A stretch of DNA of 64,000 bases from Dehalococcoidia bacterium (GTDB lineage: Bacteria; Chloroflexota; Dehalococcoidia; Plut-88900), in contig CBDBLV010000005.1 of assembly GCA_965207225.1 (NCBI GenBank), forward strand, positions 1,824,001-1,888,000, written 5' to 3'. The notes under the pieces are model-generated. The model did no database searches, was not told the origin of the DNA, and saw only the letters and a list, made by a program, of their open reading frames with translations. Made by a program: the position numbers and the translations under genes. Below are positions 13,391-35,106 of the stretch, piece after piece (position 1 is the stretch's first letter; every line of letters starts with the position of its first letter).

Positions 13391-13407
13391 TTGAAAGGAG
13401 AAGCGAC

Positions 13408-15558: not shown

Positions 15559-15630
15559 ATGCAATGCCTTCACCTCCGCTAAACCGGGTGCCTCCTCAGG
15601 ACCTGCCCATCACCCGCCCCGTGGTGCAGA

Positions 15631-15670: not shown

Positions 15671-15698
15671 ATCCTCTTGCCGGTCCGGCCGGGCCGGA

Positions 15699-18600: not shown

Positions 18601-21600
18601 CGGTAGTCGAGGTTGGCGCTGGCGTCGACGGTGACCGTGACCGATCCGTCGGGCTCGTCCACCTCGTCGTTGGTGGTGGCCACCGTCAGCGCGGCGTAGC
18701 CCGCCGACGGGATGGTCACCGTCCGATGTTCCATGGATATCCCGGAGTCGTCGCTCTGCGACACCGTGACGCTCACGTCCAGGTCCGCAGCCGGGGCCGG
18801 GTTGGCGCTGACCGTGAAGGTCGCGTCCCCGCCCTCGGTCACGTTGCCGTCGGCGGTCACGCTGATCAGCGGCACGGACGTGTTGGGCGCGGGCGTCTCG
18901 AAGTCCACCGTGAAGGTCTTCGGCGTCGCGCCGGCGGCCAGGGTCCGCACGGTGATCTTGTCCAGCTGGGTCGTCCCGTGAAGGACGGAGACCACGTAGT
19001 GCGACTGCGGGTCGAGGCCGGTGAGCTGGTGCTCGGTGGCGGTGGTCGTGACTTCCGTCAGGACCGGGACGCCCGTGAAGCTCTCGTGCCAGACGACCAG
19101 GTAGGACGCGCCGTCCCCCTGCGGCTTCCAGGCGACGGTCGCCGTGGTGTCGGAGACGCGCTTGAGCTGCACCGGCGGCGGCGGCGGCAGGTCGTTGTTG
19201 GCGATATAGACCGAGGCGTAGCTCCTGAACCTGTTCAGCCGGTAGCCCTCGCCGAACTGCACCGTCGCGCCGAGCATCCCGTTGGAGCCCCAACCGGTGT
19301 CGTCGACGGTGGGGATGGTGAACGAGACGCTGCCGCCGGTGGGCACGTTGACCGTGCGCTCGCCCAGGTGCTGGGCGGCGACCACGGAGCCGGGGCCGGC
19401 CACGCCCACCCTGACGTCCAGCGGCGCGTCGGGCGCGGGGTTCACGGTGACCGTGTAGACCGCGTCCTCGCCCTCGGTGATGGTGCCGCCGGCGGCGCTG
19501 ATCGACACCTCGGGCACACGCTCCACGATGACCGACGTGGGCTCCGCCTCCACCGGCGAGCCCGCCGCAAGCGTGGTGAAGCGAATCACCGGGCTGGCGG
19601 TGCTCAGCTGCGTCGCGCCGTGGTCGGCGTAGTAGACCACCGCCCGGTACTCGGTGTCCGGCTCCAGGTGGCGGATGTTCCAGGCCGGGTCGTTGGGCTC
19701 GGCCCCGAACCAGGCCTCGTCGGCCGGGACGCCGGGGAAGGGCGACGTGGTGGACCAGTAGCGCACCTCGTAGCCCTCGGCGCCGACCACCTGAGGCCAG
19801 CTCAGGTCGATGCCCGTGTCGGACAGGTTGGCGTAGCTCAGGTCGCCCACGCGCTCCACCACCGGGTCCGGCAGGTCGCCCAGCAGCCGCTGGCAGCCCA
19901 CGCAGGAGCCCAGCGTGCGGTGGAAGCTGAAGCTGTCGGTGCGCACCGTCTTCGGCGGCGTCTCCGTCGAGATCTGGTTGTCGCTGCGCTCGTACAGCTT
20001 GTAGCCCTCGACCTGGAAGGTCACGTTGCCGACCACGTTGGCGCCGACGTGGACGTCGACCTGGACCGGCGTGCGGCCGACCGTGACCGAGCCGGCGCTG
20101 ACGGCAGAGTCAGTTCTGAAGGTGTGCAGGTGCGATGCGGCGGGGCTGGTGAACCAGACCCGGTGGGACCGGAAGTACTCCGACGTGCCGCTCCGCAACA
20201 GCGGCTCGGCGAAGTCGGCGCTGATGGAGAAGCGCTTGTCCTGGTCCGCCGGCGGGTCGTTCTTCGTCCGCACCCAGAAGTAGTGCGCCTTGCGCCCCGT
20301 GTTCAGCGAGGCCGGGAAGGCCAGATTGAGCCCGCCGTCCTCGATGGACGTCCAGGTGGTCCCGTCGTCGATGGAGAACTCCAGGGTCTGCTCCCACTCG
20401 TCGTCGTCCCTGATGATGAGCGGCACCTGCACCTCGGGGTAGTCGAAGCCTCCCACCTGGTACAGCACGCCATTTTCATAGAAGTTGTGGCCGACGGCGT
20501 GGGGCCGGTGGATCAGGAACGTCCCGTGGTCGAAGGCGTCGCTGTCCTGCCCCGCGGCGAGGCTCACCGGACGCCACTTGTTGGCGTCGCTCTCGTAGAC
20601 GGACTGCGACGAGAAGGGGCAGCCGTCGTGCCGGTCCAGCAGCGGGCCGGCGGTGCTGCCGTAGCCGAAATGAATCCCATCCCGGCCAAGCCCTTCGACG
20701 ATGGGGTCGCCCAGGTTGTAGGGGCTGCGGCTCCCGGTGTGGCACATCAGCCGGTCCCGGTCCGGTTTGCCCGGCCCGATGTAGCCGCCGTGGTGGCTGA
20801 GCGGCTCAGCCACCTGGCTGGCGACGTAGAAGTGCCGGCGCTCGTGGGGGTCCACCGCCTGCCACTGGTAGGTCACCGCCGGGCCGCCCTCGGTCAGCGT
20901 GATCGTCGGCGGCGGGTCGTGCCTGTTGTAGTTGGCGATCACCCAGCCCGTCGAGCACGTGTTGCCCGACACCGTGCCCGCGCAGGTGCGGAACTGCACG
21001 AAGGCGTCGGCGGCCCCCAGGTTCAGGCCGATCTTGAGCGCCTCGGAGTGGGTGCTCCAGGAGACGGCGGGGTTGGGGTAGAGCGACCAGGAACTGTGGC
21101 CGTCGCCGATGCTCCAGCCCTCGGGCAGGCGCAGGCCCCGCAGGCGCTCGGAGTTCGACGCGGTGGCGCGAAGGGTGTACGTGCTGTTGGGCTGCACGGA
21201 CGCGTCGTATACGTACACCCAGTAGGTGGTGTTCGGCTCCAGCCGCAGCCCCGAACCGTCGTCGCCCTGGTAGGTGAAGGTGAAGGTCCGATCGGCGCTG
21301 CCCACCGGCATGGAGGGGCGCGCCAGGTCGGCCAGGACGTCGGCGGCGGTACTGCCCGGCGAGCCGCCGGAGCCGGCCCAGATCTGTACCCTCAGATCAC
21401 GGGCGGCGTTGGAGTCGCCGATCTCGGCAAACTCGACGTCGACGCTGTTGAGGCGGTAGTGGCCGCCGTTCTTGCCCGTCGTGAACGACTGCGCGCGGTC
21501 ACGTACGGTACTGGCAGTCGTCACGGTCAACGCCGCGCCGTCCGCCTGGCCCAGGTTGCTCATCACCGCCGGCTCACCGGGCGGCGCGTTCACCGGCGTG

Positions 21601-24600
21601 GGCTCCACCCGGAACAGGGGCGAGATGCCGTAGAACGCGTGGTCCTGGGTGCTCGCGATGGTGTTGTAGCTGATGGGGCCGGTGTCCGCGTCGGTGGTCG
21701 AGAACCGTCCCCGCCGGGCGTTGCTGGCGCCCAGAGGGTTCGCCTCCTTCGCACCGTCGGTCCTGGTGCCCGTCCACGGCCAGTCGTTCGAGGTGCTCCT
21801 CTCGCCGCTCTCGAAGCGCCGGTCCGCCATCGCCCAGTTCTCCCAGGTGTCGGACCAGAAGCCGGCGTTGTTCGCCGCGACGCGCTCGCCGTTCAGCCAC
21901 CAGACCTCCGCGTCCGTGTGCCCGGCGTTGTTGGGGTTGGTCCGGGTGTGGTCCCGGGCGTCCACCGCGGCGGTGGAGCCCACCACCCGGAAGTGGTCGG
22001 CGTAGCGCCGGACGGCGGCGTGCCCGTCGCGGGCCGCCTCCCGCACGTGGGCGTCGTAGACGCCGATGTCGGCGGCGGTGGCGTCGCGGTGGTCTTCGGT
22101 CATGAACAGCAGCCGGAACGTCTCGCCCGCGCCCAGACCGAGCGGCTTCAGCGGCCAGTCGAAGGGCACGGTGTAGGAACCGTCCGCGTGGGGCAGCAGC
22201 CGGCCGTTGACTCCCATCGACAGAGTGGAGCCGCCGACCAGGGTGATCCAGTTGCCGCCCCCCTGCGCGCGGATGCGAGCGTCGTTGTTGATGCTCCAGC
22301 CGGGCGCCGCGCCCTCGTCCTCGGAGTTGCTCTGCGTGAACTTCACCTGGCTGTTGCCTTCCGTGAGTCCGGCTGCGTCCAGCACGACCCAGTAGCGGGT
22401 GTCCGCCTCGAGCGCGACGCCCGGGTGCGTGAAGCTGTACGTGCCGGCCTGCCGGTTCACGAAGGCGGGATTGGCCAGGGTCCCCACGACCGTGCCGGGA
22501 GCCCCGTTGGCACCTTTGTGGACGGTGACCGTCAGCTTGGAGCCGAAGTCCTCGGTGGACCGGTTGAAGGCCACGTCCACGCTGGTCAGGGTGTACCCCG
22601 AGGGGTTGCCGCCGGTGTCGAAACCCTGCGCCAGGTCCACGTGCAGGCCCTGCACCAGGCCGCTCGACTGGCCGGTGTTCTTCACCAGCGCCGGGTCGTC
22701 GTCCCGCACCCGGACCGTCGCCGTCCCCAGCGACGTGGCCAGGTCGTAGTCCGACCCGTCCACCAGCGTCACCGTGACCGAGCCGTGGGCTTCGTCCACG
22801 TCGTCGCCGGTGGTGGGGATCTCCAGCGTCGCGGTGCCCGAGTCCGGGATGGTGACGCTGGTGGGCAGGGTCCCGTACCCGAAGTCCCCGGTCGTGGCCA
22901 CCGTCACGCTCACCGGCAGGTCCGCCGTGGGCGCCGGGACCGCCGTCAGCGTGAAGCTGGCGCTGACGCCCTCGGTGACGGCGCCGCCGCCAAGGATGCT
23001 CACCCTCGACGGCCGCGGCTTGCTGACGCCGTCGAGGCTGATCTTCAGTGACGATACGTTGGGGGTCCACGCGCCCGTCGAGGAAGCCGTTCTCGTCCCA
23101 GCGCCGTCGGCGATGCTCCAGCCGGCCAGGCCCCCGCCGTCCTCGGCGTCCGAACCCGTCAGGCGTACCCTCGAAGAACTCTGGCCAGCGTCCATGTCGA
23201 TCACGAGGAAGTAGGTGGCGCTCCCCTCAAGGTCGATGCCCGCGCTGCTGGTGAAGGTCAGCGTCTGGTCCGAGGTGGAGGCGGGGAAGCTGGCGGGGTT
23301 GGTCAGGGTCCCCAGCGAGCTGCCCGGAGACCCGCCGGAGGCGGCGTGGATGCTGGCGGTCAGCGCCGAGGAGCTGAAGGCGCTGTCGATGGTGGAGAAC
23401 TCCACGTCGACGCTGTGCAGGGTGTAGCCGAAGCTGTTGGAGCCGCTGGTGAACGCCTGGTGGAAGTCATTGCCCAGAAACGAGGTGCCTCCGTCCGCCT
23501 GGCCGGTGTTGGCGACGAAGGTCTCCGTCTCGACCGTCTCGACGGCCGTGCCGTGGATGGTCATCTTGCGGGACTGGCTGAACGAGGTCCAGGCGCCCGA
23601 GGTGTTCCAGGTCCGGTAGTGGCCGTCGTCGGCGATGGTCCAGCCGTCCGCGCCGCCGGCGTCCTCGGCGTCCGACGCGGTGTTCTGGATGGTGTTGGCG
23701 CCGGGCAACAGGACCAGCGTGACGTCCAGCACCGCCCAGTACGTGGTGTTCGCCGCGAGCGCCACGCCCGAGTGCGTGAAGCTGTTCGTGCCCGCGGCGA
23801 TCGTGCCGGGCTTGGTCAGGGTGGCGACCACCGCGCCCGGCGCTCCGCCGCTGTCGCTTCTGATCTCGGCAGCCAGCTTCCCCGCCAGCGCGCCGTCGTT
23901 GATTTGCGGAAACGAGAAGTCGACGCCCGTCAGGGTGTACCCGCCGGCGTTGGCGCCCGTCGTGAACGCCTGCGCGTGGTCGTGCTGTACGAAGTTGCCG
24001 GTGCCGCCGTTCGCCTGCCCGAAGTTGCTCACCAGCGGCGACGGCGTCTTGCTGATACCGCCGAGGCTGAGTTTCATTGACGAGGCGAAGGTGCTCCACG
24101 CGCCCGTTGTGTTCCACGCTCGTCTCGAGAAACCGTCGCCGATGCTCCAGCCGGCCTGGCCTCCGCCGTCCTCGCTGTCCGAACCCGTTAGGCGCATCAA
24201 CGAAGCAGACTCGGCACTGCTTAGATCGATCACCAGGAAGTACGTGGTGTTCGCCTCAAGGTCGATGCCCGTGCTCGTGAAGGTCAGCGTCTGGTCCGAA
24301 CTGGAGACGGGAAAGCTGGCGGGGTTGGTCAGGGTCCCGAGGGAGCTGCCCGGAGACCCGCCGGAGTCGGCGTGAATGCTGGCGGTGAGGGACGAAGAGC
24401 TGAAGCCGCTGGCGATAGCGGCGAATTCCACGCCGACGCTGCGCAGGCTGTAGCCCGCGCTGTTGCTGCCGGTGGTGAACGCCTGGGCGAAATCATATTC
24501 CAAATGTGTCCCAGCTAGGCTTGACTGACCGGTGTTGGCGACGAAGGTCTGCGTCGCCTGCTGCGCAGAGGCTGTTTCAGTCCCTCCAGACAGCAGCACG

Positions 24601-24714
24601 AACAGCGCCGCCGCCAGCAGGGTCAACGTGAGGAAGGTTCTGGCGGGGCGCCTCAATGAAAGAGAACCCCACGAAATGCGGGGGGGGGGTGAAGCTCCGC
24701 AGCGCGTTGGTCAT
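15699..24714 (-). CDS. Giant secreted repetitive adhesin (~3000 aa); ATG at 24714 is out of frame with the body because of a C10 tract
   Basis: Signal peptide (TFLTLTLLAAALFVLL..ASAQ); five xVxNxGQ...AQxFxTG beta repeats; DWPLKP..FRLLF lectin-like segment; FN3 units; many Calx-beta-like EG..FTV..DD..DE.DGSV..TV.V.DND repeats; terminal Calx-beta (GELVFAPG..DDDEEPDEYF). Confidence 0.9.
16051..17358. repeat. Four near-identical 327-bp tandem units (109-aa Calx-beta-like domain)
   Basis: GCGTCGTCGTTGTC recurs at 16051, 16378, 16705 and 17032. Confidence 0.92.
17635..18288. repeat. Two more 327-bp units of the same repeat
   Basis: Unit starts at 17635 and 17962. Confidence 0.9.
24680..24689 (-). 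repeat. Homopolymer tract (C10 on the coding strand) in the 5' end of the adhesin
   Basis: Ten consecutive G on the + strand, 25 nt after the ATG that follows AGGAGG. Confidence 0.9.
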
Positions 24715-24959
24715 GTCGTCGAACCTCCTGTGTCGCCCGACTTATGCCGCGACGCCGTGCGGGCGCTGGATCAGTAGTATTTCTAGCTCATGTCAATATG
24801 TGTCGCAAGCGACCAGCAGATATCATCCGCCAATCTGGGGTTGGTTGTCAATGGGGTCCGGGTTGGATTGGGGACGGAAAGGGCGGGCGGAGCGCAGCAA
24901 CATACCGTGTGGGGACTGGCGGACAAGGGCGACTTGGCGAGACCCCTCGGAGGCAGTCG

Positions 24960-25334
24960 TTACTGTGGCGTAGCCTGGATGAGGACGCGTCCGCCTCTCT
25001 GGACCCGGATATTCAGGTCGTGGTCATCCAGCAGCCTCATGCCGACCAGTGGAGTGGAATCGGCGGCGCTGGCCCTGGTGTTCCGCAGGCTGTCGTCCCA
25101 CAGCACGGCGACGTCATAGACATCGAAGAAAGCTTCGCTACCGTCGGCCAGAATTGCACGGCTTCGGTCCCGATAGGCCAAGCCCAACTCCCTCACCAGG
25201 TCTGAGGGCAGGGTCAGGAAGCCATTGTATCCCGTGTCTATTACGGCTTCGACTTCCCGTGACCGGCCCGTCGGCCCTTGCACTGTAAGACCGACGACGG
25301 CTTCGTAGGCGGTGTTCACCGTTCCATGGATCAC
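24960..25334 (-). CDS. Clan AA (retropepsin-like) aspartic protease
   Basis: EAVIDTGYNGFLTLP catalytic DTG, LADGS flap, PLVGMRLL; GTGA overlap with the upstream gene. Confidence 0.9.
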   Translation of the reverse strand: MIHGTVNTAYEAVVGLTVQGPTGRSREVEAVIDTGYNGFLTLPSDLVRELGLAYRDRSRAILADGSEAFFDVYDVAVLWDDSLRNTRASAADSTPLVGMRLLDDHDLNIRVQRGGRVLIQATPQ

Positions 25335-25648
25335 TCAGTCCTCCGCAGCGATCCGCCCCCAAAGCTGTAGAGCGCCCTATAGCCGACCCGCAGGCACCAA
25401 ACGTCATAGGCGTCGGGCCGCTGGGATTGCAGCCGGTCCGTAGCGGCAATCTCGTCCGCTCCAATAGCCCAGCTTCCACTCTCCACGTCTATGGCGACGA
25501 CCTCTCCAACATGGTCCTCCTCGACCTGCCGCCGGATGTCTCGCTCGTATATCTGGTCGCCCAACCGCGCCGTCTCTTCTTTAGGACGGCTCGGCGGTGT
25601 CGTGGGCTTGGCGCGCTGGCTGGGTACCGAAGTCTCTGCGTCTCTCAT
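25331..25648 (-). CDS. Small DUF5678-like partner of the aspartic protease
   Basis: RBS GGAGGAGG, ATG 25648; GDQIYERDIR...GEVVAIDVESGSWAIG...LRVGY; TGGTAGAAT extended -10 at 25692-25684. Confidence 0.75.
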   Translation of the reverse strand: MRDAETSVPSQRAKPTTPPSRPKEETARLGDQIYERDIRRQVEEDHVGEVVAIDVESGSWAIGADEIAATDRLQSQRPDAYDVWCLRVGYRALYSFGGGSLRRTE

Positions 25649-25786
25649 GCCTCCTCCCTTCAATGAGCGTTCCCTCGTTCCTAATTCTACCACTCTGCGG
25701 GAGATCCGGACAGCCAGAAAGGGCGGTGCCACAGGGGAAGACAGACCAACCAGCTATGGCCTATACTGCGAGCCTACAGACTTCCC

Positions 25787-25834
25787 AGTCGCATCTCGAA
25801 AACGGTTCTGCCTACCGTCAAAATAGGCCCACCA
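25787..25834 (+). repeat. att-like scar A (48 bp) ending in a tRNA-Ile-like 3' end
   Basis: AGTCGCATCTCGAAAACGGTTCTGCCTACCGTCAAAATAGGCCCACCA; antisense reads GGPILTVGRTVFEMRLGSL*. Confidence 0.8.
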
Positions 25835-25896
25835 AACATTTCACCATGCCCGCGGACCGATGTGCGTCGTCGTCGTTGCGCCGCGTGGAAGGTCTC

Positions 25897-25947
25897 ACCT
25901 ACATCTTCACCGAACCCCGCGTCGGCTACAGGATACCCAAGAGGGAG
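25897..25947 (+). pseudogene. Remnant C-terminus of an OmpR/KdpE-type winged-helix regulator
   Basis: TYIFTEPRVGYRIPKRE matches the terminal YI-x-T-x-x-x-VGYR hairpin; the rest of the gene is absent. Confidence 0.6.
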
Positions 25948-26057
25948 GGGACGGAACGGGGGAGACGTAGGCTGAGGCACTGTCAAATCTTCCGTTTATC
26001 AACCCCTCCACATCACACTACGAGAATGGCGAGCCCTCGGTGTACCGGCACGCCACC

Positions 26058-26109
26058 GAGCCACATCTCGAAGGTGGTAGCATCCACCGCAAGCGGTGAT
26101 GGCCCGTCC
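26058..26109 (+). repeat. att-like scar B (degenerate right half)
   Basis: GAGCCACATCTCGAAGGTGGTAGCATCCACCGCAAGCGGTGATGGCCCGTCC; antisense reads DGPSPLAVDATTFEMWLGG. Confidence 0.7.
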
Positions 26110-26212
26110 TTGCACGATATGGGCTCAGTGGACCGGGCAGACATCCATTCTGGTAGCCATCAGTATTGATGCCGTAAGCCCTTATTCATGCATCCATGAG
26201 CAGGTGAACAAG

Positions 26213-27229
26213 GTGACTGATACTACTACTAGCTACTACGATCTGAGCGTTGAGGATACCTGGATAGAGTACCTTAGAACCAGGTTGCCGTACTCCTTCA
26301 ATCGCATAGAAGTGAAGGGAAACGGTCAATCTAGACACTTCGTGCTGTCGGAACCTGTACTACTAACGGATTTCAATGCAGCTGAACGCCACAATTTTTG
26401 GAGACGCGGAAACGTCTACTACATGTCGGGAAAACTCTTGGACTACTATTCGATGTCTGAAGTCGGCCGAGGCTATCGAATGGCAGAGGTCATGCAACTT
26501 CTAACAGACTCCGGCATTTCGCCGTACAGGTGGCCCACCAATGCATTTGCCTTCTACAACTCGATGCAAATGGAGAAGGTCTGGGGATTTGCGCAAGCTA
26601 ATCATCTTGACAGAGAACGGGTGATGATGACAAACCTCATACTGGCAATAGAATTGTGTCTGAAGGCAGTTGTGACTCATGCCACCTTTCATAAGACGGG
26701 CACCTTCAGATTCGACGCGGGGCACGACGTTGCCAAGCTATACGAAGCCCTGCCCGATTCACTCCGAGACGAAGTAGCCGCGGAGTCCGAGGTGTTCGCC
26801 GAGGAGTACGTGGCATTCAGGGCAAATGTGGAGACCGACATCCGGCGAATCTATGGTCGGCGTCCCTCGCCGCAACATGCCCATCCCAATAGAAAAGAGC
26901 AAGCTGAAGCTGAATGGAGAGAGTTGGCAGAAAGAATTAGGGAGAGTACCTACACGGCCTTCGTGAACAGCAACGATCCTGGCGCGGATAACAAGTACCT
27001 GCACCAAGGTTGGTTCGAGGAAGCCCTGCATCAAGTGAAGCTGGTCAAGAACCCTGGAGACATCAGCCAATACTTTCGGTATGCACCCCACAAGGATAAG
27101 GACGAGCTGCCCACAGACCTCATACATTGGATCCTTCTGTTGGGCCGCTTCATGTACGAGCACCTCTTTCCGGTGCCACGGTCGGACAATGGGCCTTATT
27201 CAGAGTTTCCCGGGTCGGCTAGTGGCTGA
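26213..27229 (+). CDS. HEPN-like domain protein with unknown N-terminal region (start uncertain)
   Basis: NLILAIELCLKA...AGHDVAKLYEALP...YFRY, the ELxLKA / GHD / RY pattern of HEPN domains; more AT-rich than the adhesin region. Confidence 0.65.
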   Translation: MTDTTTSYYDLSVEDTWIEYLRTRLPYSFNRIEVKGNGQSRHFVLSEPVLLTDFNAAERHNFWRRGNVYYMSGKLLDYYSMSEVGRGYRMAEVMQLLTDSGISPYRWPTNAFAFYNSMQMEKVWGFAQANHLDRERVMMTNLILAIELCLKAVVTHATFHKTGTFRFDAGHDVAKLYEALPDSLRDEVAAESEVFAEEYVAFRANVETDIRRIYGRRPSPQHAHPNRKEQAEAEWRELAERIRESTYTAFVNSNDPGADNKYLHQGWFEEALHQVKLVKNPGDISQYFRYAPHKDKDELPTDLIHWILLLGRFMYEHLFPVPRSDNGPYSEFPGSASG

Positions 27230-27460
27230 AGGCTAGTTGTCCCAGACGACCCAAGACCGTCACCCTCTCACTGCCCCAACAAAAGGAATCGCAGGCTCGT
27301 TAGGTGTTGAAGGAGAACCACCCATCCATAAGCGAGTTGTTTAGACAGGTCATCCTTACCTACAGGTTCAGAACGAAGCTCAAGCTGGATGCTCTTCATT
27401 TTGTCGAGTCTGGTGTGGGTACGGGCGTACCGAACTACGAGCTCCGGCTCATAGGCCCCC

Positions 27461-27509
27461 GAGCCACATCTCGAAGGCGGTGCCAGCTACCGTCCATTTA
27501 GGCCCACCA
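27461..27509 (+). repeat. att-like scar C ending in a tRNA-Ile-like 3' end
   Basis: GAGCCACATCTCGAAGGCGGTGCCAGCTACCGTCCATTTAGGCCCACCA; antisense reads GGPKWTVAGTAFEMWLGGL*. Confidence 0.85.
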
Positions 27510-27569
27510 AGAGCCTGGACGGGTTAGAGTGTAGCCGCGTCCCATACGGGGCAGTCCGGTCGAAGGTAG

Positions 27570-27953
27570 CTAGGTCTGCATTATCTGGACCAGATTGCCG
27601 CAGGTGTCGTCAAAGACCGCAATAGTGACGTTGCCCATTTCTGTCGGCTCCATCGTAAAGGCTACGCCCAGGGACTTCAGTTTCTCATATTCTGCGCGGA
27701 TGTCCGTAACGCCAAAGGACGCTGCCGGGATGCCCTGCTCAAATAGCCCTTTCTGATATGCCTGTGATACCGGGTTTGCATCTGGTTCAAGCAGAAGCTC
27801 GGTCCCATCCGGGTCGTCGGGCGAGACGACGGTAAGCCACTTGAATTCCCCCACAGGGACGTCGTGCTTCTTCACAAAGCCGAGGGTTTCCGTGTAGAAC
27901 CTCAAAGCTTTGTCCTGGTCACTTACGAAAACGCCGGTGAGAATAATGCGCAT
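27570..27953 (-). CDS. VOC/glyoxalase family protein
   Basis: VFVSDQDKALRFYTETLGF, WLTVVSP, ELLLEP, FDDTCGNLVQI. Confidence 0.92.
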   Translation of the reverse strand: MRIILTGVFVSDQDKALRFYTETLGFVKKHDVPVGEFKWLTVVSPDDPDGTELLLEPDANPVSQAYQKGLFEQGIPAASFGVTDIRAEYEKLKSLGVAFTMEPTEMGNVTIAVFDDTCGNLVQIMQT

Positions 27954-27980
27954 ATCTGGCCTCCTTTTCTTTTTGTAGTG

Positions 27981-28253
27981 TCACTTGAGCCATCGGTCCA
28001 TGACAGCCCTGAGGGGTTTATCGTTGAAGACAAGCATCCGATACTTGCCGCGCTTCTCTGAGCTTACGAGCCCCGCTTGTTCCAGGAGATCAATGTGCTT
28101 GGCCAGGGCCTGTCGGGAGATGGCGACGTTGTGACGCATGATCAAGCGCGCCGTGAGTTCGTAGAGCGTCTGCTCCTTGCGCTCAGAGAACTCGTCCAGC
28201 ATCAACCTCCGTATTGGATCCGCGAGTGCCCTGAAGACCTGGTCTTTATGCAT
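27981..28253 (-). CDS. ArsR/SmtB family transcriptional regulator
   Basis: VFRALADPIRRLML, ISRQALAKHIDLLEQAGLV..EKRGK. Confidence 0.92.
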   Translation of the reverse strand: MHKDQVFRALADPIRRLMLDEFSERKEQTLYELTARLIMRHNVAISRQALAKHIDLLEQAGLVSSEKRGKYRMLVFNDKPLRAVMDRWLK

Positions 28254-28260
28254 GGACGCA

Positions 28261-28291
28261 TACGATACGCAACCATAGGGTTGCATGTCAA
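28261..28291 (-). promoter_or_regulatory. Promoter with ArsR-type palindromic operator; probably leaderless
   Basis: Minus strand TTGACA-T-GCAACC-CTAT-GGTTGC-G-TATCGT, ending a few nt before the ATG. Confidence 0.7.
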
Positions 28292-28350
28292 GGGGCGATC
28301 CCACAGGCCGGCAGGAACCACATCCCCAGCCAGTCGCAGGAGTGCATATA

Positions 28351-28398
28351 GCGAACTCTCAGCCAAAGGTTGGCGGTACAGGACACGTCGGCCCACCC
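28351..28398 (+). repeat. att-like scar E (divergent variant)
   Basis: GGT-TGGCGGT-ACA-GGACACGTC-GGCCCACCC keeps the spacing of scar C (GGT-N7-ACC-N9-GGCCCACCA); antisense reads GGPTCPVPPTFG*EF. Confidence 0.5.
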
Positions 28399-28511
28399 GA
28401 AGAGAGGCCCGGACTCTCGGTCATGATAGTGGTCCCGGGGCTCACAGCCCGCCGAGCCAAATCTCAAGGACGGGTCTGTCTACCCATGCACGTTGGCGAA
28501 GACGTCGAAAT

Positions 28512-28856
28512 CTAGCCCTGTTGCGAATTTCCGGCGCTGGCCGGATGTGCACCTTGCGCACTGTCCCCCACGGGCTCAAGGCGCAGCCTCAGCCCCAATG
28601 CGGTTGTGACCTTCAACAGGGTTGCCAGGGTAGGGTTGCCGCCGTCAGACAGCGCCTCGTAAAGGTTGCCGCGGTTTAGACCGGTGTTGCGGGCGAGAGC
28701 GCTCATGTTGTGCGTCTGAGCGACATACCTAAGCACTGCCCGAATCACCGCACCGTCACCAGTGTCTTCCTCCGCAGCCGCGCGGAGAAGTCGTCGGAAA
28801 TCCTCTTCGGTCTTTACATAGTCCGCTGGGTCAAATCTTCGATATTCTTCAGACAT
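28512..28856 (-). CDS. Addiction-module antidote (HI1420-like HTH antitoxin)
   Basis: FDPADY...MSALARNTGLNRGNLYEALSDGGNPTLATLLKV..ALGLRL; TAATG coupling to the toxin. Confidence 0.93.
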   Translation of the reverse strand: MSEEYRRFDPADYVKTEEDFRRLLRAAAEEDTGDGAVIRAVLRYVAQTHNMSALARNTGLNRGNLYEALSDGGNPTLATLLKVTTALGLRLRLEPVGDSAQGAHPASAGNSQQG

Positions 28857-29152
28857 TAGCCCCTCCATTCCGTCGCCATTCTCTTGGCCCGTTCGATGTC
28901 TCGCCGTTGGCTGTCCTTGTCACCGCCGCATAACAGGATGATTAGTTCGGCTTCTCGCGTGATGAAGTAGATTCGGTATCCAGGCCCGTACTGAATCCTC
29001 ATCTCGGATACGCCGCCACCTACAGGTCTCACGTCTCCGAGATGCCCGTCTTCGGCTGCCAGCAGTCTAGCGATTATGCGATTTACAGCCTGGTAGTCTC
29101 GCAGCCTGCTCAACCACCGGTCGAAGGTCGCGCTTCTCAGGACCGTGTACAT
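28856..29152 (-). CDS. RelE/ParE-superfamily addiction-module toxin (HI1419-like)
   Basis: FDRWLSRLRD..GHLGDVRPVGGGVSEMRIQYGPGYRIYF..LLCGGDKDSQRRDI. Confidence 0.95.
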   Translation of the reverse strand: MYTVLRSATFDRWLSRLRDYQAVNRIIARLLAAEDGHLGDVRPVGGGVSEMRIQYGPGYRIYFITREAELIILLCGGDKDSQRRDIERAKRMATEWRG

Positions 29153-29160
29153 GGTTCTAT

Positions 29161-29178
29161 TGTACGATATATCGTACA
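29161..29178. promoter_or_regulatory. Perfect 18-bp palindromic operator overlapping the -10 of the TA operon
   Basis: TGTACGATATATCGTACA; minus-strand TACAAT lies 6 nt before the toxin ATG. Confidence 0.8.
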
Positions 29179-29368
29179 GCGCTGTGCAATGAATTCAAGT
29201 GTGGAGGACGCAATGGCAACGCTTTCCGCCCCCAATGCCTCCTTGTCAGCATGGCGGGGAATTGCCCGATGGTCCTACAGCCGGGCCTCCCAGCGGAGAG
29301 TTCGCAGCCCACAGCCCTATTGAGCGAGGTTGATTGAAAGAGGTGTCGATTGCTCCATAGGCGGGCAT

Positions 29369-29416
29369 AGCCACATCTCAAGAATGGCATCGTATACCGC
29401 CCCCTCAGCTTCACCA
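29369..29416 (+). repeat. att-like scar D (48 bp) ending in a tRNA-Ala/tmRNA-like 3' end; probable right island boundary
   Basis: AGCCACATCTCAAGAATGGCATCGTATACCGCCCCCTCAGCTTCACCA; antisense reads GEAEGAVYDAILEMWL. Confidence 0.75.
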
Positions 29417-29501
29417 CGTACCTAATGAGGGGATGACCGCGCTGCTGCCGTAATGACCGGCCAGCGTCCAGACCGGTGACCTGGTTGACCTCTCCCCGAG
29501 G

Positions 29502-29927
29502 TTAGTCTTCTAACATGTAGGCGCCCGTTTCCCAAACCTTCTCATCGCCGCCCGGGGCCCAGTTTACGATGATGGCTCTCAACGGTTCTTCGCTGGTCAC
29601 CCGCATTGCGTGCGACATACTGGGAGGGCAAAAGGTCACTGTTCCAGGTCCGGCATTAAAGGTCTCGTCTCCCCACTCACATTCGGCGGTCCCACTCAGG
29701 ATGATGTAGATCTCGGGCCTGAGGTGGGCGTGGGCGCCATAGTATGTCCCGGGCTCCAGCATGAACGCCGTAGCTGCAATATCCCTGGCTGCTATACCCC
29801 CGTCCCGGCCGATAAGCGGCTTCGAGTACATCGCCTTCAACAACTCTTTGGGGTAGTTGCTGTACGAAGAGAAATTTTCGAGCTCATAGTCCTTGATGTA
29901 GTACTTGCCTTTTTTCTCAGTTGCCAT
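29502..29927 (-). CDS. Cupin domain protein, DMSP-lyase (DddQ)-like motif
   Basis: LEPGTYYGAHAHLRPEIYIILSG...PG....PP...HAM..EPL; RBS AAGGAG. Confidence 0.8.
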   Translation of the reverse strand: MATEKKGKYYIKDYELENFSSYSNYPKELLKAMYSKPLIGRDGGIAARDIAATAFMLEPGTYYGAHAHLRPEIYIILSGTAECEWGDETFNAGPGTVTFCPPSMSHAMRVTSEEPLRAIIVNWAPGGDEKVWETGAYMLED

Positions 29928-30192
29928 CTTTAAACTCCTTGACGGGTGCTGCCGTCTCTTCGGAAACGCTGCCTTAGGTGGCGGGCATTGCTAATGGTAC
30001 ACCTGAAGGGCGGGGCAAGACAGTGCGTAGAGAGCGTACCTCTGGTCTGCCTGTCGTGACTGTATGACAACCTGAATGGACCAGGTTCAAATGAAGTCAA
30101 GGATGACGGTAATTTTGACTTGACAAGTCGGCTTAATGGAATGGATGACAGCGCCTGATTGCCTTCCCTGCGCCTCTGATATACTGCCTGGC

Positions 30193-30342
30193 ATGTTCAC
30201 GGGCATGTTCAGATCGCTGAAGATGTTGTGGAAGTACCCCGAACCCTGGAACGTTCGGCTTTCGCTGTTTTCCCAAAATGTGCTCACAAAGATCCGCCGT
30301 CGGAGCCGATGCTGTGGGAACCTGGGGCAACCGGGATGCTGA
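30193..30342 (+). CDS. Putative 49-aa basic protein ending CCGNLGQPGC, probably leaderless
   Basis: Extended -10 TGATATACT 7 nt before ATG 30193; MFTGMFRSLKMLWKYPEPWNVRLSLFSQNVLTKIRRRSRCCGNLGQPGC*. Confidence 0.55.
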   Translation: MFTGMFRSLKMLWKYPEPWNVRLSLFSQNVLTKIRRRSRCCGNLGQPGC

Positions 30343-30489
30343 GTGGAGGCTAATGGGGCCCTCGGTGAGGGCCACCCGCCACACAGGCACTAGCCAAGAC
30401 TTCATTGCGCTGCGAATTCCTGCCAATCGACCCTTGGGATAGTATGCACGCCGATCAGCGGTTAGTGCTTCCACGGGAGGACTCTCATA

Positions 30490-31707
30490 GTGATAGATGG
30501 TCGGGCCTTAGCGGAGGCGGAGGGCTGGGGGCCGCCGTTCCCCCTTGCTGAATATAAGGGGCGAGTCGAAAAAGTCCGAGAAGAAATGACTCGCAGGGGG
30601 ATTGACGTCCTGCTTGTCTCTTCCCCGCCCAATATCACCTACCTGACGGGCTATGACATGATCTGGTACTACCTGACCAGTCCGGTGAGCGTAGCGCTGC
30701 ACGCAGACTCGGGTCAGACGTGCTTCTTCGAGGTCCCATACCATCGACCAACCGTCGAATGGCATGCCGTCGTGGACGACGCCGTATTGTTCGGGGAAGG
30801 ACAATCGCCGGTCGAGGACATTGCCAGCGAGCTGAAGGCGCGAGGCTGGCTAAAAGGCAACGTGGGTGTGGAGGACTGGAGTCGGGCGCCGGGGGGAGTG
30901 GTAATCAACCAGATAAAGCAGTCGTTTTCTGACGCCGGGGCCAACGTAGTTGACGGGTCCTGGGTTGTGGACAGAGTGAGGTTAATCAAGTCCAAGGCGG
31001 AAATCGAGGTAATGAATAAGGCGGCGTCGATAGCCGATACGGCGATGGAGACGGTAAAGGAGGCCATTCGGCCTGGAGTAACCGAGATAGAGTTAGCGGG
31101 GGTGGTTCTGCAGGCGATGATGAGGGCGGGAGGGGGAGACCCGGCAATTCGTGCGGCAGTCAGGTCGGGGCCGCGCTTTGCTGCGCGACATTGCGCCCCG
31201 AGCCACAGAAAGTTGAAGATGGGCGACCTTGTATGGATCAATCACTGCGGCTCATATCACCGCTACCACGTGGATCTGGGTCGGCTATTTTCGCTGGGAG
31301 AGCCATCGGCGAACTGGCGAGACCTTATGAACAAGACCTGCGGAAGCGTTGATTACGTGAAAGAGAGGGTGAGGCCGGGGGACTCGACGGGGGTGGTCCA
31401 GAGGGCGATGGACGAATACATCAACTCGGTGGGCCTTCGTCAGTATGCCGCATACATCAGCGGTTACAACATGGGCATCGCCATTCCACCGGACTGGGTG
31501 GGGCACACATTTATAGACCCGGAGGCGGGATTCGAGACTGCGCGCTATGATCCGGGCATGATTACCAACTACGAGAACCTGTTCACGGTGTTGGACCCTG
31601 TCTGGGCCGGGGGCACGGGCGGGGGTTTCATAGAGACGATACTTATGACCAATGAGGGACTGGAGGTGCTTTCTAAGCTGGACAGGAACGTTACGGTTAT
31701 CGAATGA
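30490..31707 (+). CDS. M24-fold hydrolase, creatinase/ectoine-hydrolase-like
   Basis: FPLAEYKGRVEKVR, NITYLTGY, RLIKSKAEI, GYNMGIAIPPDW; several prolidase metal ligands are substituted. Confidence 0.88.
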   Translation: MIDGRALAEAEGWGPPFPLAEYKGRVEKVREEMTRRGIDVLLVSSPPNITYLTGYDMIWYYLTSPVSVALHADSGQTCFFEVPYHRPTVEWHAVVDDAVLFGEGQSPVEDIASELKARGWLKGNVGVEDWSRAPGGVVINQIKQSFSDAGANVVDGSWVVDRVRLIKSKAEIEVMNKAASIADTAMETVKEAIRPGVTEIELAGVVLQAMMRAGGGDPAIRAAVRSGPRFAARHCAPSHRKLKMGDLVWINHCGSYHRYHVDLGRLFSLGEPSANWRDLMNKTCGSVDYVKERVRPGDSTGVVQRAMDEYINSVGLRQYAAYISGYNMGIAIPPDWVGHTFIDPEAGFETARYDPGMITNYENLFTVLDPVWAGGTGGGFIETILMTNEGLEVLSKLDRNVTVIE

Positions 31708-31819
31708 CCGGCAGGGTTGTACCTCTGCAAGTATCACTACACGCGATCTCGGGCCTTCCTCTACAAAGCACTCCTCACTCGATATCAGATTAACCCTTTT
31801 AGTCCAGGAAGCGTCTGAC

Positions 31820-31975
31820 ACGTTATAATTACGTTATAGTTGTAATCCAACTTTACCGTAGGCAATACGATAGCTAGATAAGAAAACATTGCCCAAAACA
31901 ATGAATCAGGTTGACAGGGATTTGTGAGTGCTATTCCGGAAGGTGTAGTATACGTGCGTTATAGACCTGTTATAG
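31820..31975. promoter_or_regulatory. Two GTTATA-N5-GTTATA direct-repeat boxes upstream of the PAS-LuxR gene
   Basis: GTTATA at 31822/31833 and 31958/31969, each pair 11 bp apart, in an AT-rich intergenic region. Confidence 0.5.
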
Positions 31976-32105
31976 TGCGTGACCTATGATTTGTGACACT
32001 GTGCGAAAAACAGCGGTGGGTGATGATGGAACGCATCTTTATCCGGTCGATTAATCGTTGCCTGAGCTAAGGGCCCCGAGCTATCAATCCAAAAGGCGGA
32101 GCACG

Positions 32106-32795
32106 TTGAATACTGATTCTCTGATAACTCTTCTGGACTCCCTGCACTCCGGCGCCTACGCCGTATCCCTAGACCAAACAATTATGTTTTGGAATCGGTC
32201 AGCGGAGCGTATCCTGGGACTCCGGTCTCGAGAAGTCGTAGGGCGGCGGTGTTACGATGTGCTGCAGGGCACGACGTCGGGTAGTTTGACTCCCGAGTGT
32301 GTCGGGGGATGCCCTTCTATTCGGTATCTGCGTGCCGGCTTGGTGCCAGCCACAACGAGATTGAGGATGCTAACGGCCTCGGGCGAGCGGAAATGGGTGT
32401 ACGTGACACCATTGGTAATTGGGGGCGCGCTCAGAGATGCACCTGTAGTGGTCCACTTATTTGACGACAGCGCGGAATCGGAGGGGCTGGACAAGGCAAA
32501 GGATATCTTCAGAGACACTCTGACGGAGAGCGGGTCAGAAGTGCTGTCTTATCAGCCGCCTGCCTCAGTCGCGGCAGGAGAGGGGTCTGACCTGTCTCGT
32601 CGTGAATTGGAAGTTCTGCGCCTGGTGGCCCTGGGATGGGAAACTCCGAGGATTGCCACGGACCTAGGGATCAGCCGACACACGGTACGCAACCACATAC
32701 GGAATCTGCGTCACAAACTCAATGCGCCCACCAAGCTGGACGCGGTGGTTAAGGGAATTCGCATGGGGATTCTGCCCATGGGCAGACAGTCCTAG
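32106..32795 (+). CDS. PAS domain LuxR-family transcriptional regulator
   Basis: IMFWNRSAERILG...EVVGRRC PAS; LSRRELEVLRLVALG..IATDLGISRHTVRNHIRNLRHKL HTH. Confidence 0.93.
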   Translation: MNTDSLITLLDSLHSGAYAVSLDQTIMFWNRSAERILGLRSREVVGRRCYDVLQGTTSGSLTPECVGGCPSIRYLRAGLVPATTRLRMLTASGERKWVYVTPLVIGGALRDAPVVVHLFDDSAESEGLDKAKDIFRDTLTESGSEVLSYQPPASVAAGEGSDLSRRELEVLRLVALGWETPRIATDLGISRHTVRNHIRNLRHKLNAPTKLDAVVKGIRMGILPMGRQS

Positions 32796-33023
32796 CAATA
32801 CATGCCCTTTAGCTGCGAAGCCACGGGTTCGGTGGCTGGCAACCGGAACGTCTCCGCCAACAATCTATGGATGAATGCGGCACTGTTTTCGCGGGAGGCC
32901 GGGCCGTCACGAGGACCCCGAGCAGAGTGAACTACCAACTCGACGACTTCAGCCCGCTGTCATAGGCTCGTCTGCAGCAAGTCAGCCGCTCTTCTGCATG
33001 GCCTTGTGTTGCGGTCAATCCGC

Positions 33024-33051
33024 TTGACGCTTCTCTCTGTTTCCTTAGAAT
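33024..33051 (+). promoter_or_regulatory. Sigma70-like promoter for ppcA
   Basis: TTGACG-N16-TAGAAT about 40 nt before the GTG start. Confidence 0.5.
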
Positions 33052-33090
33052 TGCGCTAGTCCAGATTGAACGACCCAAAGCCCCAGGATA

Positions 33091-34590
33091 GTGCCCCAGG
33101 AGGGAAATCCCGTGTTCTTTGTTCCCAAGGTGATGAGCACGCAACACCCCGACAATGCGGCCCCCGCGCCCTTTGCGGATGAGGAAGGGGTGCTGAGGGC
33201 CAATGGAGAGGTAAACGAAGCGTTCCAAATCTTCTCGTTGGGGTGCGATGAGCAGATGTGGGACTCGGAGGGGAAGGAGGCCGACAATCACGTCGTCCAG
33301 AAGCTGCTAACGGGGTACCCGGAGTTTTTCAGAGAGAGGCGGCGCCTGGGTCGGGACGTTGCGCTCACACTACGAGTCCCCAACCCGGGCATAGAGAGGG
33401 ACATGCGTAAGTCGATGGTGGAGGCTCTGCAGAGCGTACCCTCGGCGTGGGACATTGCGCATAGCTTCTACGGCGAAATCGGGGACGATTCGGCACCAAT
33501 TCAAGAGGTGATACTGCCGTTTACAACATCTGCAGAAGAGATCTCGCTGGTAGAGGCGTACTATCGGAACATAATCGTTGGGCAGGAGGGGCAGACGCTG
33601 CCCAATGGCAACCTGGTAAAGGACTGGGTGGGGGAGTTTTATCCGAAATGCCTGCGAGTCATTCCCCTGATCGAAGACATGGAGCACCTGTTCAACTGCG
33701 ACCGCATCCTGGAGGAGTACCTGGAAGGAAGGGACTTGCCGGGTCAGAGGGTGTTCTTGGCCCGCAGCGATCCTGCGCTCAACTACGGCATAGTTGCTGC
33801 GGAACTGGTGCTGAAAGTGGCGCTGGTGCGGCTGCGAGAACTGGAGACGCGTATCGGGGTGCCGTTCTTTCCGATAATCGGGGCGGGGTCGGTGCCTTTC
33901 AGGGGCCATTTGACGCCGATAAACGTAGAGAGGGCGTTGAGGGAGTATCCGAGCGCGTACACGTTCACGGTCCAGTCCGCCTTCAAGTATGACTACGACA
34001 TGGAAGAGGTGAAGAGGGGAATCGACCAGCTCCGGGAGCACAGACCCTGGGAGCCCGTGCCGGTAGATGAGGAACGAGCCATGCGGGTGATTGACAAAAC
34101 GACTGCGGAGTACCAGGAGCGAGTTCGCGACTTGCTGGAAGTTATCAGCACAGTGGCGGGACACGTGCCAAGACGACGGGAGAGGAAACTGCACGTGGGG
34201 CTGTTCGGGTACGGGAGGTCGTTGGGAGGGTTTGGTGGAGCTACGCTGCCTCGGGCGATAGGCTTTGCGGCCTCTCTGTATTCAATAGGGGTACCCCCGG
34301 AGCTGCTGGGGCTTGCGGCCCTGGACGAGGATGACCTTGCGTTCGTACGGGAGACCTGTCCGAGCCTTGACGAGGACTTGCGGGCAGCACTGCGGTTCGC
34401 CAACGAACGGCATGTAATGGAGCTGCTCGGCGAGGGCTACATGCGGATAGTGGCGCAGTTCACGGACGAGCTGGACCGGGTCCACGAGGGATTGACGGGG
34501 GCAGTCTGGGCGGGCATCAGCGGGGATGCGCCGGTGAACATCCAGAACTACGTGCAGGAAGCCGCACACCTAAGGCGCTTCCTGGGGTGA
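33091..34590 (+). CDS. ppcA: Archaeal-type phosphoenolpyruvate carboxylase
   Basis: MSTQHPDN, MWDSEGK, RVPNP, EVILP, VIPLIED, RVFLARSDPALNYG, GAGSVPFRG, TVQSAF, RERKLHVGLFGY, LPRAI; 499 aa. Confidence 0.95.
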   Translation: MPQEGNPVFFVPKVMSTQHPDNAAPAPFADEEGVLRANGEVNEAFQIFSLGCDEQMWDSEGKEADNHVVQKLLTGYPEFFRERRRLGRDVALTLRVPNPGIERDMRKSMVEALQSVPSAWDIAHSFYGEIGDDSAPIQEVILPFTTSAEEISLVEAYYRNIIVGQEGQTLPNGNLVKDWVGEFYPKCLRVIPLIEDMEHLFNCDRILEEYLEGRDLPGQRVFLARSDPALNYGIVAAELVLKVALVRLRELETRIGVPFFPIIGAGSVPFRGHLTPINVERALREYPSAYTFTVQSAFKYDYDMEEVKRGIDQLREHRPWEPVPVDEERAMRVIDKTTAEYQERVRDLLEVISTVAGHVPRRRERKLHVGLFGYGRSLGGFGGATLPRAIGFAASLYSIGVPPELLGLAALDEDDLAFVRETCPSLDEDLRAALRFANERHVMELLGEGYMRIVAQFTDELDRVHEGLTGAVWAGISGDAPVNIQNYVQEAAHLRRFLG

Positions 34591-34632
34591 AGGGGCCGGA
34601 GATCAACCATCGTTAGTCGCCCCGCCAAAGTA

Positions 34633-35106
34633 GTGGTGGTCCTGGCAACCACGGTTATGGTTGCTATGGGGTGTAATGCAGCCCCGAAAGGCGAGGGGCT
34701 CGTCGCGACGGCTGAACTACGCTCGGGGCGAGAGACATTCGCATCGGTGTGCGCGGCCTGCCACGGGGTCGGGGGAGAGGGCCAAGCCGACTGGCATATC
34801 CGCAAGCCGGACGGGACACTGCCAGCGCCACCGCTCAACGGCGAAGGTCATACATGGCACCACGGCGATGGCCTCCTATATCGCATAGTCAACGAGGGCG
34901 GGCAACTCTGGGAAGACCCGGACATACCCCAGTTCAAAAGCGGGATGCCCGCATTCGGCGGGCAGCTGTCTCACGAGGAGATAGTTGACGTAATTGAATA
35001 CGTCAAAAGCCTCTGGGCTGATAAGGAAGTACGTGACGTATCGATTATCGAGCACCAAGCCCTAATGAGCGAGACTGACCCTTTCCCTACGGCTAACGCC
35101 CAGTAA
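34633..35106 (+). CDS. Monoheme cytochrome c, probable lipoprotein
   Basis: CAACHG, PAPPLNGEGHTWHH, GMPAFG; N-terminal hydrophobic stretch ending AMGC. Confidence 0.9.
   Translation: MVVLATTVMVAMGCNAAPKGEGLVATAELRSGRETFASVCAACHGVGGEGQADWHIRKPDGTLPAPPLNGEGHTWHHGDGLLYRIVNEGGQLWEDPDIPQFKSGMPAFGGQLSHEEIVDVIEYVKSLWADKEVRDVSIIEHQALMSETDPFPTANAQ

Follow-up and report, generated by a model that had tools for sequence, protein, structure and literature searches.

The 64,000-nt window analyzed here, meaning the whole stretch of DNA at G000:C5:1824001-1888000, belongs to a Dehalococcoidia bacterium whose 4.03-Mb genome (G000) is distributed over 5 contigs, referred to below as C1 to C5. It harbors five related short repeats (sites A to E, table 1), and to the right of site A lie four short recombinase-less units, each ending in one of these repeats. 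On its minus strand every repeat encodes a peptide tail homologous to the C-terminus of a family of large serine recombinases (LSRs). The repeats are very probably chromosomal junction scars, that is, attR-type half sites of attachment (att) sequences, belonging to elements that use a CcrB/DsiB-like LSR.

Table 1. Repeat sites, intervening units and flanking regions (window positions; in sequences, a slash marks a boundary)
Feature	Positions	Strand	Description
Site A	25774..25834	-	Putative LSR element-end scar: stop, tail, arm X and core; minus strand encodes GGPILTVGRTVFEMRLGSL and a stop
Site B	26043..26105	-	Tail of the same family (..DGPSPLAVDATTFEMWLGG) without in-register stop; core in the opposite orientation (..GGTGATGGCCC)
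Site C	27449..27509	-	attR: tail GGPKWTVAGTAFEMWLGGL and a stop, arm, core CCACCA at 27504-27509
Site E	28442..28500	-	Tail ..VDRPVLEIWLGGL and a stop in register; E-type arm; degenerate core (..ACGTTGG/CGAAG)
Site D	29369..29416	-	Tail ..AVYDAILEMWL (GEAEGAVYDAILEMWL..) without in-register stop; arm mimics a tRNA-Ala 3' end (CCCCTCAGCTTCACCA)
Unit A-B	25835..26042		208 nt, no convincing gene
Unit B-C	26106..27448	+	377-aa open reading frame, 26096-27229 (+)
Glyoxalase-ArsR unit	27510..28441	-	Glyoxalase-family gene 27570-27953; ArsR-type helix-turn-helix (HTH) gene 27981-28304 (Pfam)
HigBA-like unit	28501..29368	-	HigA-like antitoxin 28512-28868; Gp49/HigB-like toxin 28856-29152 (Pfam)
Strain-specific island left of A	7657..25773		DDE transposase, IS21 istA/istB, multi-HTH protein, 2985-aa repeat protein, clan-AA protease pair
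Backbone right of D	29417..34892		Cupin 29502-29927; M24 peptidase 30490-31707; 97% identical to G008 over 5485 nt

Four of the repeats had been described in an earlier reading made from the letters of the sequence without database searches (hereafter, the sequence-only reading). The 18-mers that it quoted (C, 27492-27509; A, 25817-25834; D, 29399-29416) and the minus-strand peptides of sites A, B, C and D are all present, with the stops of A and C at the same place; on the plus strand, site A ends in ..GTCAAAATAGGCCCACCA. A repeat search revealed site E as a fifth same-strand copy, which that reading had missed. Chance controls for short words within the repeats were moderate: TAGGCCCACCA with up to one mismatch gave 3 matches against 0.99 expected, a number reached in 7 of 100 shuffles, and the 12-mer CCACATCTCGAA with up to two mismatches gave 14 against 5.9 expected, reached in 1 of 100 shuffles. 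Despite these moderate controls the repeat family is real: searching the 4.03-Mb genome with a profile made of the five copies brought up 20 others (E <= 0.03). Four of these 20 underlie the 3' ends of full-length LSR genes, and three of the four genes read the tail in frame. Relatives of the site B subtype were found at C2:411307, C3:347566 and C2:150531, and the arm of site E resembles the 3' end of the intact LSR gene C5:1068317-1069939. Two stretches considered as further copies within the window, 46999-47070 and 42206-42217, were rejected because their motifs were out of order or inside a gene.

The tail consensus, ..RT[VI]FE[LM]W[LM]GGL followed by a stop, corresponds to the C-terminus of a CcrB-like LSR family. 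In a tblastn search of the window with an intact LSR (L002:173-1810, minus strand), 18 of 22 residues of the site A tail were identical to residues 524-545 of the query (E 2e-5), which bears out the proposal of the sequence-only reading that the peptide is a recombinase terminus. By tblastn, G000 encodes 33 LSR genes of one family, none of them in the window, comprising 13 of an a-type (C-termini ..VLDFVK-S[GS]PP..) and 20 of a b/c-type (..VLSTVK-SGGP.. and variants). The Resolvase, Recombinase and Zn_ribbon_recom domains (Pfam: PF00239, PF07508 and PF13408) scored above cut-off in all five of the G000 genes scanned, and the best NCBIfam model was CcrB, with E-values of 3e-38 to 4e-49 and 132-168 bits against a cut-off of 900. 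Within the motif ..YARVSSDRQ.., where we presume the catalytic serine to lie, R15, S17, S18 and Q21 were invariant in 36 sequences. A sequence search of the PDB returned general LSR relatives only (SPbeta YokA, A118 and TP901-1).

The 3' ends of the 33 genes fall into four kinds: four genes carry their own short tail, seven run antisense into a tRNA, 14 form seven convergent pairs and eight end in other sequence. Three of the four own-tail genes exhibit the tail type of the window (..GGPILTVDRTVFELRLGSL and a stop in L002, ..GGPELTIGRTIFELWMG.. and ..TCMVDRTVFELWLGGL with a stop), the fourth belonging to a second tail family; an own-tail gene from another Dehalococcoidia genome, L008, likewise ends in ..GGPKWTVDRTVFEMWLGAL and a stop. 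The seven antisense genes run into tRNA-Ile, Ala-tgc, Lys-ctt, Val-tac, Gln-ttg, Val-gac and Met, and their fused ends read like ..GGPSWTRTRDL.., which is tRNA antisense continued from the same ..GG(P) codons. At five of these seven junctions, the tRNA up to ..CCA is followed by three variable bases and then by a common arm, TTGACGGTAGACAGAAC. The convergent pairs each combine an a-type with a b-type gene (e.g., L001, C4:871500-875100), whose 3' ends overlap by ~125 nt over one palindromic att site, both proteins being read through one core on opposite strands.

Species-representative genomes were scanned with an alignment built from five G000 LSRs, which yielded 455 relatives. Of these, 80 loci were kept; 79 are labelled Dehalococcoidia, Chloroflexota/Chloroflexi or Tepidiformaceae and one Acidimicrobiia. 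An antisense tRNA lies under the LSR 3' end in 51 of the 80 loci, involving 18 tRNA species, most commonly Ile (9), Ala-ggc (7), Met (6) and Lys-ttt (5), and the remainder consists of 10 loci with a convergent LSR partner, six with their own short tail and 13 others (two cut by a contig end). In the single Acidimicrobiia case, L064 (VXNF01000041.1), an LSR sharing 72% identity with the query comes from a contig assigned by its label to an Acidimicrobiia metagenome-assembled genome, which points to either transfer or a binning error. These fusions agree with the earlier idea of an att site within the recombinase gene's 3' end and of a tail swap upon integration. The sequence-only reading had counted two tRNA targets, a number far exceeded both in G000 and among the related loci, and it had offered ssrA as a possible match for the scars; ssrA is not used in G000, where the transfer-messenger RNA (tmRNA) gene at C1:198772-199125 has no adjoining LSR or scar.

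To distinguish the tail from the DNA next to it, 18 unique sequences of 26 collected were compared over nine codons (R-T-V-F-E-M-W-L-G). Mean entropy was 0.78, 0.18 and 1.00 at codon positions 1, 2 and 3 (permutation P 1.5e-4, a value that overstates independence, the sequences being related copies), and 378 of 859 codon differences were synonymous, as compared with 3-35% in the five other frames. The core-proximal arm exhibited no codon periodicity, with entropies of 0.85, 0.88 and 0.84. Because periodicity is found in the tail and none in the arm, purifying selection has preserved the tail as a translated peptide, the arm behaving like a DNA site. An AlphaFold2 model of the intact LSR (36-sequence alignment) reached a mean predicted local distance difference test score of 73.8; this score was below 50 for tail residues 519-545, and the model is therefore uninformative on the structural role of the tail.

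The clearest view of a single junction came from site C. In four congeners, homology to the window sets in precisely at position 27504, where CCACCA begins, and in the congener G005 the DNA found right of site C (the glyoxalase-ArsR unit) comes after an intact tRNA-Ala(tgc). The left flank of that tRNA in G005 is 87% identical to G000 C1:240663-246056, a segment that ends at the tRNA-Ala(tgc) of G000, and this gene is in turn followed on C1 by the arm GACTTGACGGTAGACAGAAC and then by an LSR gene. The junction reads ..CAGCTCCACCA/AGTACCTGG in G005, ..CAGCTCCACCA/GACTTGACGG with the LSR thereafter on C1 of G000, and ..TTTAGGCCCACCA/AGAGCCTGG at site C of the window. CCACCA is the sole stretch common to these three junctions, and the exchange therefore lies within it. 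By this comparison site C is a true attR, the far junction of the tRNA-Ala(tgc) locus, in keeping with the attR-type scars envisaged by the sequence-only reading. Because the three junctions have only CCACCA in common, the remaining 12 nt of the 18-mers are the element's own arm, imitating an acceptor stem and not representing host tRNA. The view of the 18-mer as a tRNA-like 3' end was thus upheld for CCACCA, which is common to the target, and abandoned for the other 12 nt, host tRNA-Ile having 4-5 mismatches in 18 to the 18-mers of A and C.

The arms GTTCTG.CTA.CGTCAA.. and GTTCTTGATTTT.TCAAG.. are symmetric around CGGCCCACCA, which fits a ~40-50-bp LSR att with inverted-repeat arms. Because this symmetry is centered on the first CC of CCACCA, and following general LSR rules, these two bases are the likely crossover dinucleotide; two scars (G000 C2:23600 and C5:145197) read ..AGGCC/GGG.. 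instead of ..AGGCC/CACCA, a misfit with a CC crossover. The common core spans 6-9 nt across the junctions compared, and multi-copy regions of 1.5 to >28 kb lose their likeness exactly after ..GGCCCACCA. Insertion sequence (IS) ends of the IS200/IS605 and IS110 types, raised as candidates by these multi-copy regions ending at CCACCA, were dropped, as the flanking motif is an LSR gene 3' end. A 17-nt motif, GACTTGAYAAAATCAAG, occurs 13 times, each time right after a 10-nt core that is GGCCCACCA in nine cases; seven occurrences follow a tail-arm scar, four follow other ..ACCA ends (three of them CCACCA) and two lie in the 3' ends of genes of 520-550 aa. The distance from GGTTC to the crossover is 19 nt in the tRNAs and 25 nt in the arms, a spacing that may correspond to the half-site offset between LSR attB and attP.

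These features can be arranged into one scheme. The att site would lie inside the 3' end of the LSR gene and consist of a ~20-nt arm, the core ..GGCC-CACCA and an inverted ~20-nt arm, the last 11-16 LSR codons (..RT[VI]FE[LM]W[LM]GGL and the stop) lying beyond the crossover. It would recombine with the 3' end of a tRNA gene through an enzymatic crossover inside CCACCA that leaves the tRNA intact. At one island end the LSR gene body would thereby be fused to tRNA antisense; the opposite end, beside the old downstream flank of the tRNA, would receive the detached tail together with its arm and core. Later elements may recombine into junctions already present and so give rise to tandem arrays, in which the right end of each element i would meet the left end of its neighbor, element i+1, at the CCACCA core. 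In b/c-type elements the LSR would be at the left end, reading outward, with the tail at the right end; a-type elements would carry the LSR at the right end and the second tail family (..SRTF.L.[LF].L[DE][LV] and a stop) at the left end.

Several observations weigh against this scheme. Apart from the tails, the window contains no LSR gene or recognisable LSR remnant detectable by tblastn with an intact LSR query. Sites B and D lack the in-register stop, the cores of B and E are inverted relative to those of A, C and D, and the core of E is degenerate. Compared with the corresponding site in the congeners G008 (L093) and G005 (L094), site E has a tail allele identical at 34 of 36 positions and a wholly different arm from ~28483 onward, so that its breakpoint is the tail/arm border and not the core, which a core crossover does not explain. 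For the tRNA-Ala locus, attL is at the end of one contig (C1) and attR in the middle of another (C5), and the history must therefore include rearrangement or several events and not one clean insertion. Beyond CCACCA, the 18-mers of A and C differ from every host tRNA and tmRNA end at 4 or more of 18 positions, and the relatedness of the tail copies softens the codon statistics given above. Finally, no circular junction, empty site or excision product of G000 was seen.

The missing LSR body, the missing stops of B and D and the lost core of E are what one would expect if the repeats were the decayed 3' ends of dead recombinase genes, pseudogene debris with no role in recombination, and a truncated LSR 3' remnant does adjoin a scar at C2:88266 onward. 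We nevertheless consider such an origin improbable. Among orthologous and paralogous regions, the limits of homology fall precisely on CCACCA, both at 27504 and 29412 and within the repeat families fam1 and fam2, one right flank is found with different left partners and the reverse, and decay would not produce five fragments of equal length and the same orientation cut at one codon.

The ending in CCACCA could also suggest that tyrosine integrases left behind displaced pieces of tRNA 3' ends, or a repeat of tRNA origin, in which case the antisense peptide would be coincidental. Against the 3' ends of 50 host tRNAs and tmRNA, the 18-mers were only moderately tRNA-like: the best matches had 4 of 18 mismatches for site C (Ile, Lys-ctt, Val-gac and Val-tac; shuffle P 0.023), 5 of 18 for site A (Ile; P 0.033) and 3 of 18 for site D (Ala-tgc and Ala-ggc; P 0.023), the last differing from tmRNA at 6 positions. 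At 15 of 18 matches to tRNA-Ala, the status of site D as a tRNA fragment appears ambiguous, and a junction in G008 keeps 19 nt of tRNA-Ala without any tail. ARAGORN detected no tRNA in the window and Rfam had no match in the array region 24500-30500; neither these tools nor the 50 host ends gave a cloverleaf or an exact host tRNA 3' copy of at least 16 nt at sites A, C or D. The distance of A and C from all host ends speaks against this origin as well, as does conservation that runs 40 nt past the tRNA likeness, is codon-periodic and ends intact LSR genes, and site C replaced, rather than kept, the tRNA-Ala sequence left of CCACCA. Displaced tRNA pieces are for these reasons even harder to credit than pseudogene debris. 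An integron-type cassette array (or CALIN, a cluster of attC sites lacking an integron integrase), in which the repeats would be attC sites for an IntI tyrosine recombinase, is suggested by short, mostly same-strand units (toxin-antitoxin, glyoxalase, ArsR) between ~60-nt repeats of one orientation, and was rejected as having next to no chance of being right, since the five sites form no hairpin (DNA folding z-scores -1.36 to +0.43), no IntI was found among the scanned open reading frames, the place expected for intI holds the M24 peptidase and the repeats match LSR 3' ends.

Junction scars of LSR elements thus stay the preferred explanation, and other parts of G000 exhibit more complete elements of this kind. 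An intact-looking 13-kb element at C2:75336-88265 (L099) is bounded by tRNA-Lys(ctt) and an LSR on one side and by a tail scar on the opposite side, and encodes, besides the LSR, a Replic_Relax protein, a TrwB-like coupling protein (TrwB_AAD_bind) and a cadherin-domain protein. Both of its ends read TGGTGGGCC in the phase GGT-GGG-CCN, and circularisation would therefore join them in frame. To the right of its scar lies the truncated LSR remnant mentioned above, which is intact in genome G001; a clean empty tRNA-Lys site for this element was not found, its right flank in G001 following another scar and holding an LSR. On C3, a tandem array of ~95 kb (11.5-107 kb) comprises five units bounded by att junctions, four of which fit single-LSR elements with cognate ends, and the unit at 24.9-59 kb has an LSR at both ends. 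The convergent a/b pairs might represent single elements with two recombinases, though four of the five C3 units fit tandem single-LSR elements. In addition, G000 has three copies, 95-99% identical, of a region spanning 11.5 kb or more (C3:1-11523, C4:709009 onward and C5:2003423 onward); the two that no contig end truncates extend over at least 28 kb, and the copies share the same scar end, each with a different right flank.

Within the window, the most informative unit is the glyoxalase-ArsR unit, with a degenerate X'-like arm at its left end (15 of 20 positions, with a 2-nt insertion). G005 has this unit after tRNA-Ala(tgc), G007 after tRNA-Ala(ggc), G001 after tRNA-Val(tac) and G008 after a 19-nt piece of tRNA-Ala; in G000 it follows two different scars, site C and one at C5:2003423. 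The unit is joined directly at ..CCA in every case. Recombinase-less units of this sort would either have been moved in trans, their recombinase being absent from the start, or have lost their recombinases repeatedly. At the G008 junction (L093, G008:C1 ~2211500), the 19 nt kept from the tRNA-Ala 3' end are preceded by unrelated DNA with no tail or arm, which suggests that another type of integrase, crossing over at a more 5' position, was involved. The open reading frame of unit B-C matched no Pfam or NCBIfam model and, alone among the unit genes, is encoded on the plus strand.

The HigBA-like unit is absent at the same locus of G008 and G005, where a single site abuts the right flank of D, and homology to both genomes resumes at 29412, at the CACCA of site D. 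A HigBA-like pair elsewhere in G008 is a paralogue without adjoining scars and was uninformative. One contig from read run X12, which belongs to another study, joins 28461 to 29412 (depth 4.3, 28 letters on the shorter side); as the joint also carries 36 other letters matching the G008-type site, it possibly derives from a related strain and is a weak hint. Four read runs, compared as contigs, gave no joint supporting excision in G000. Runs labelled as sponge metagenomes contain parts of the window, those with a small share being uninformative on habitat.

The region 7657-27509 contains IS elements (Pfam/NCBIfam) and is not syntenic with any of four congeners, whereas 1-7656 and 29412-34892 are backbone, 92-97% identical to G008; no att-like sequence was found at the left border of the island, 7656. 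The IS elements include a DDE transposase (DDE_Tnp_1_6/DUF772) at 7853-9310 (-) and an IS21-type istA/istB pair at 9590-11625 (+). The clan-AA aspartic protease gene at 24960-25334 (-) (TIGR03698) overlaps with its start an upstream 133-aa open reading frame at 25331-25732 (-) for which no family match was obtained, and similar pairs are found elsewhere in G000 and in congeners. The 2985-aa repeat-rich, secreted-type protein encoded at 15699-24656 (-) has several paralogues; five of them (C3:106893, C4:664769, C4:821840, C5:1054270 and C5:1925901) exhibit an identical tail scar 120-180 nt past the stop, as if this gene family were cargo near an element end.

Several known systems share parts of this organization. 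The SCCmec islands are driven by the LSRs CcrA and CcrB, use a conserved gene's 3' end as their insertion site and form composite arrays. Their CcrB is the best-scoring NCBIfam model for the LSRs described here, which are nonetheless not equivalogs and differ by having one LSR per element without a ccrAB operon, by their tRNA targets and by an att inside the recombinase gene. The integrases of Myxococcus phage Mx8 (IntP) and of Sulfolobus SSV1-type elements are tyrosine integrases with attP in their own gene, which integration into a tRNA alters or splits. As with those, the integrated and free forms here would encode different proteins, whereas the enzyme is a serine recombinase with a 6-nt common core and palindromic arms in place of long identity cores. 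Integron arrays are similar in outline, with short and mostly promoter-less units between recombination sites of one orientation, and they differ in having attC hairpins and IntI, the present sites deriving from LSR gene ends. In Prochlorococcus tycheposons, 910 of 937 elements use tyrosine recombinases (bioRxiv 10.1101/2020.12.28.424599). Successive integration beside tRNA genes and the presence of remnants, partial tRNAs and cargo-only pieces are common to both, and the accessible portions of that preprint describe, for those mostly tyrosine-recombinase elements, no tail-in-gene architecture.

The closest precedent comes from the same bacterial class. According to the parts of McMurdie et al. 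(2011, PMC3146451) available to us, Dehalococcoides carries tandem islands at ssrA with a 540-aa CcrB-like recombinase, DsiB, the 3' end of dsiB always overlapping attL; this accords with the precedent that the sequence-only reading had cited. The authors proposed that dsiB is perhaps complete only on the circle or beside a neighbouring island, and they described DsiB as divergent in its C-terminal overlap part (PMC3146451). As far as that account goes, both systems have a CcrB-like LSR of ~540 aa at attL on the reverse strand, an LSR 3' end overlapping attL/attP with its stop outside the island (here the seven G000 genes and 51 related loci counted above), and tandem arrays delimited by short direct repeats that derive from the 3' end of an RNA gene. 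The ssrA islands are described there as inserting in the T-loop with a 20-bp repeat, whereas the elements of this family use the last 6 nt of many tRNAs; the ssrA-island module has six genes (among them DsiB, DsiA, RecF-like, ParB and Mom with an embedded tRNA-like gene), as opposed to the Replic_Relax and TrwB-like genes found here in one element, C2:75336-88265. In contrast to the DsiB terminus, described there as divergent, the present tail is conserved and selected.

The overlap of the recombinase gene with attL is thus a principle already published for the Dehalococcoides ssrA islands (PMC3146451). In full-text literature, with subscription journals and supplements outside the scope, no account of tRNA-targeting serine recombinases in Dehalococcoidia was found; the many tRNA targets, the conserved and selected tail and the recombinase-less units between scars are possibly new. 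A more speculative extension, which we regard as tentative and on balance doubtful, is that the tail swap acts as a built-in state switch of the LSR and that the scars serve as a landing platform. If so, the tail would be present only on the circle or beside a resident scar, being exchanged for tRNA-antisense residues after integration at a tRNA, and the recombination product, not only a separate directionality factor, would set direction or activity. Tail-bearing scars would then be landing pads that restore the full-length enzyme, and two-armed recombinase-less units such as the glyoxalase-ArsR unit would be moved in trans among tRNA ends, amounting to a serine-recombinase counterpart of integron cassettes in a lineage with dozens of LSRs per genome. 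A selected tail beyond the crossover makes the old speculation on dsiB testable, through comparison of tailed and tailless enzymes for activity or direction. Additionally, an integrase that has a defined palindromic attP and accepts many tRNAs ending in ..CCACCA may interest those seeking integration tools. For the Dehalococcoidia, whose members are mostly uncultured, a recombinase family that has multiplied to 33 genes in a single 4-Mb genome, uses the last bases of no fewer than 18 tRNA species and builds tandem arrays of ~100 kb could account for much of the strain-level variation in gene content.

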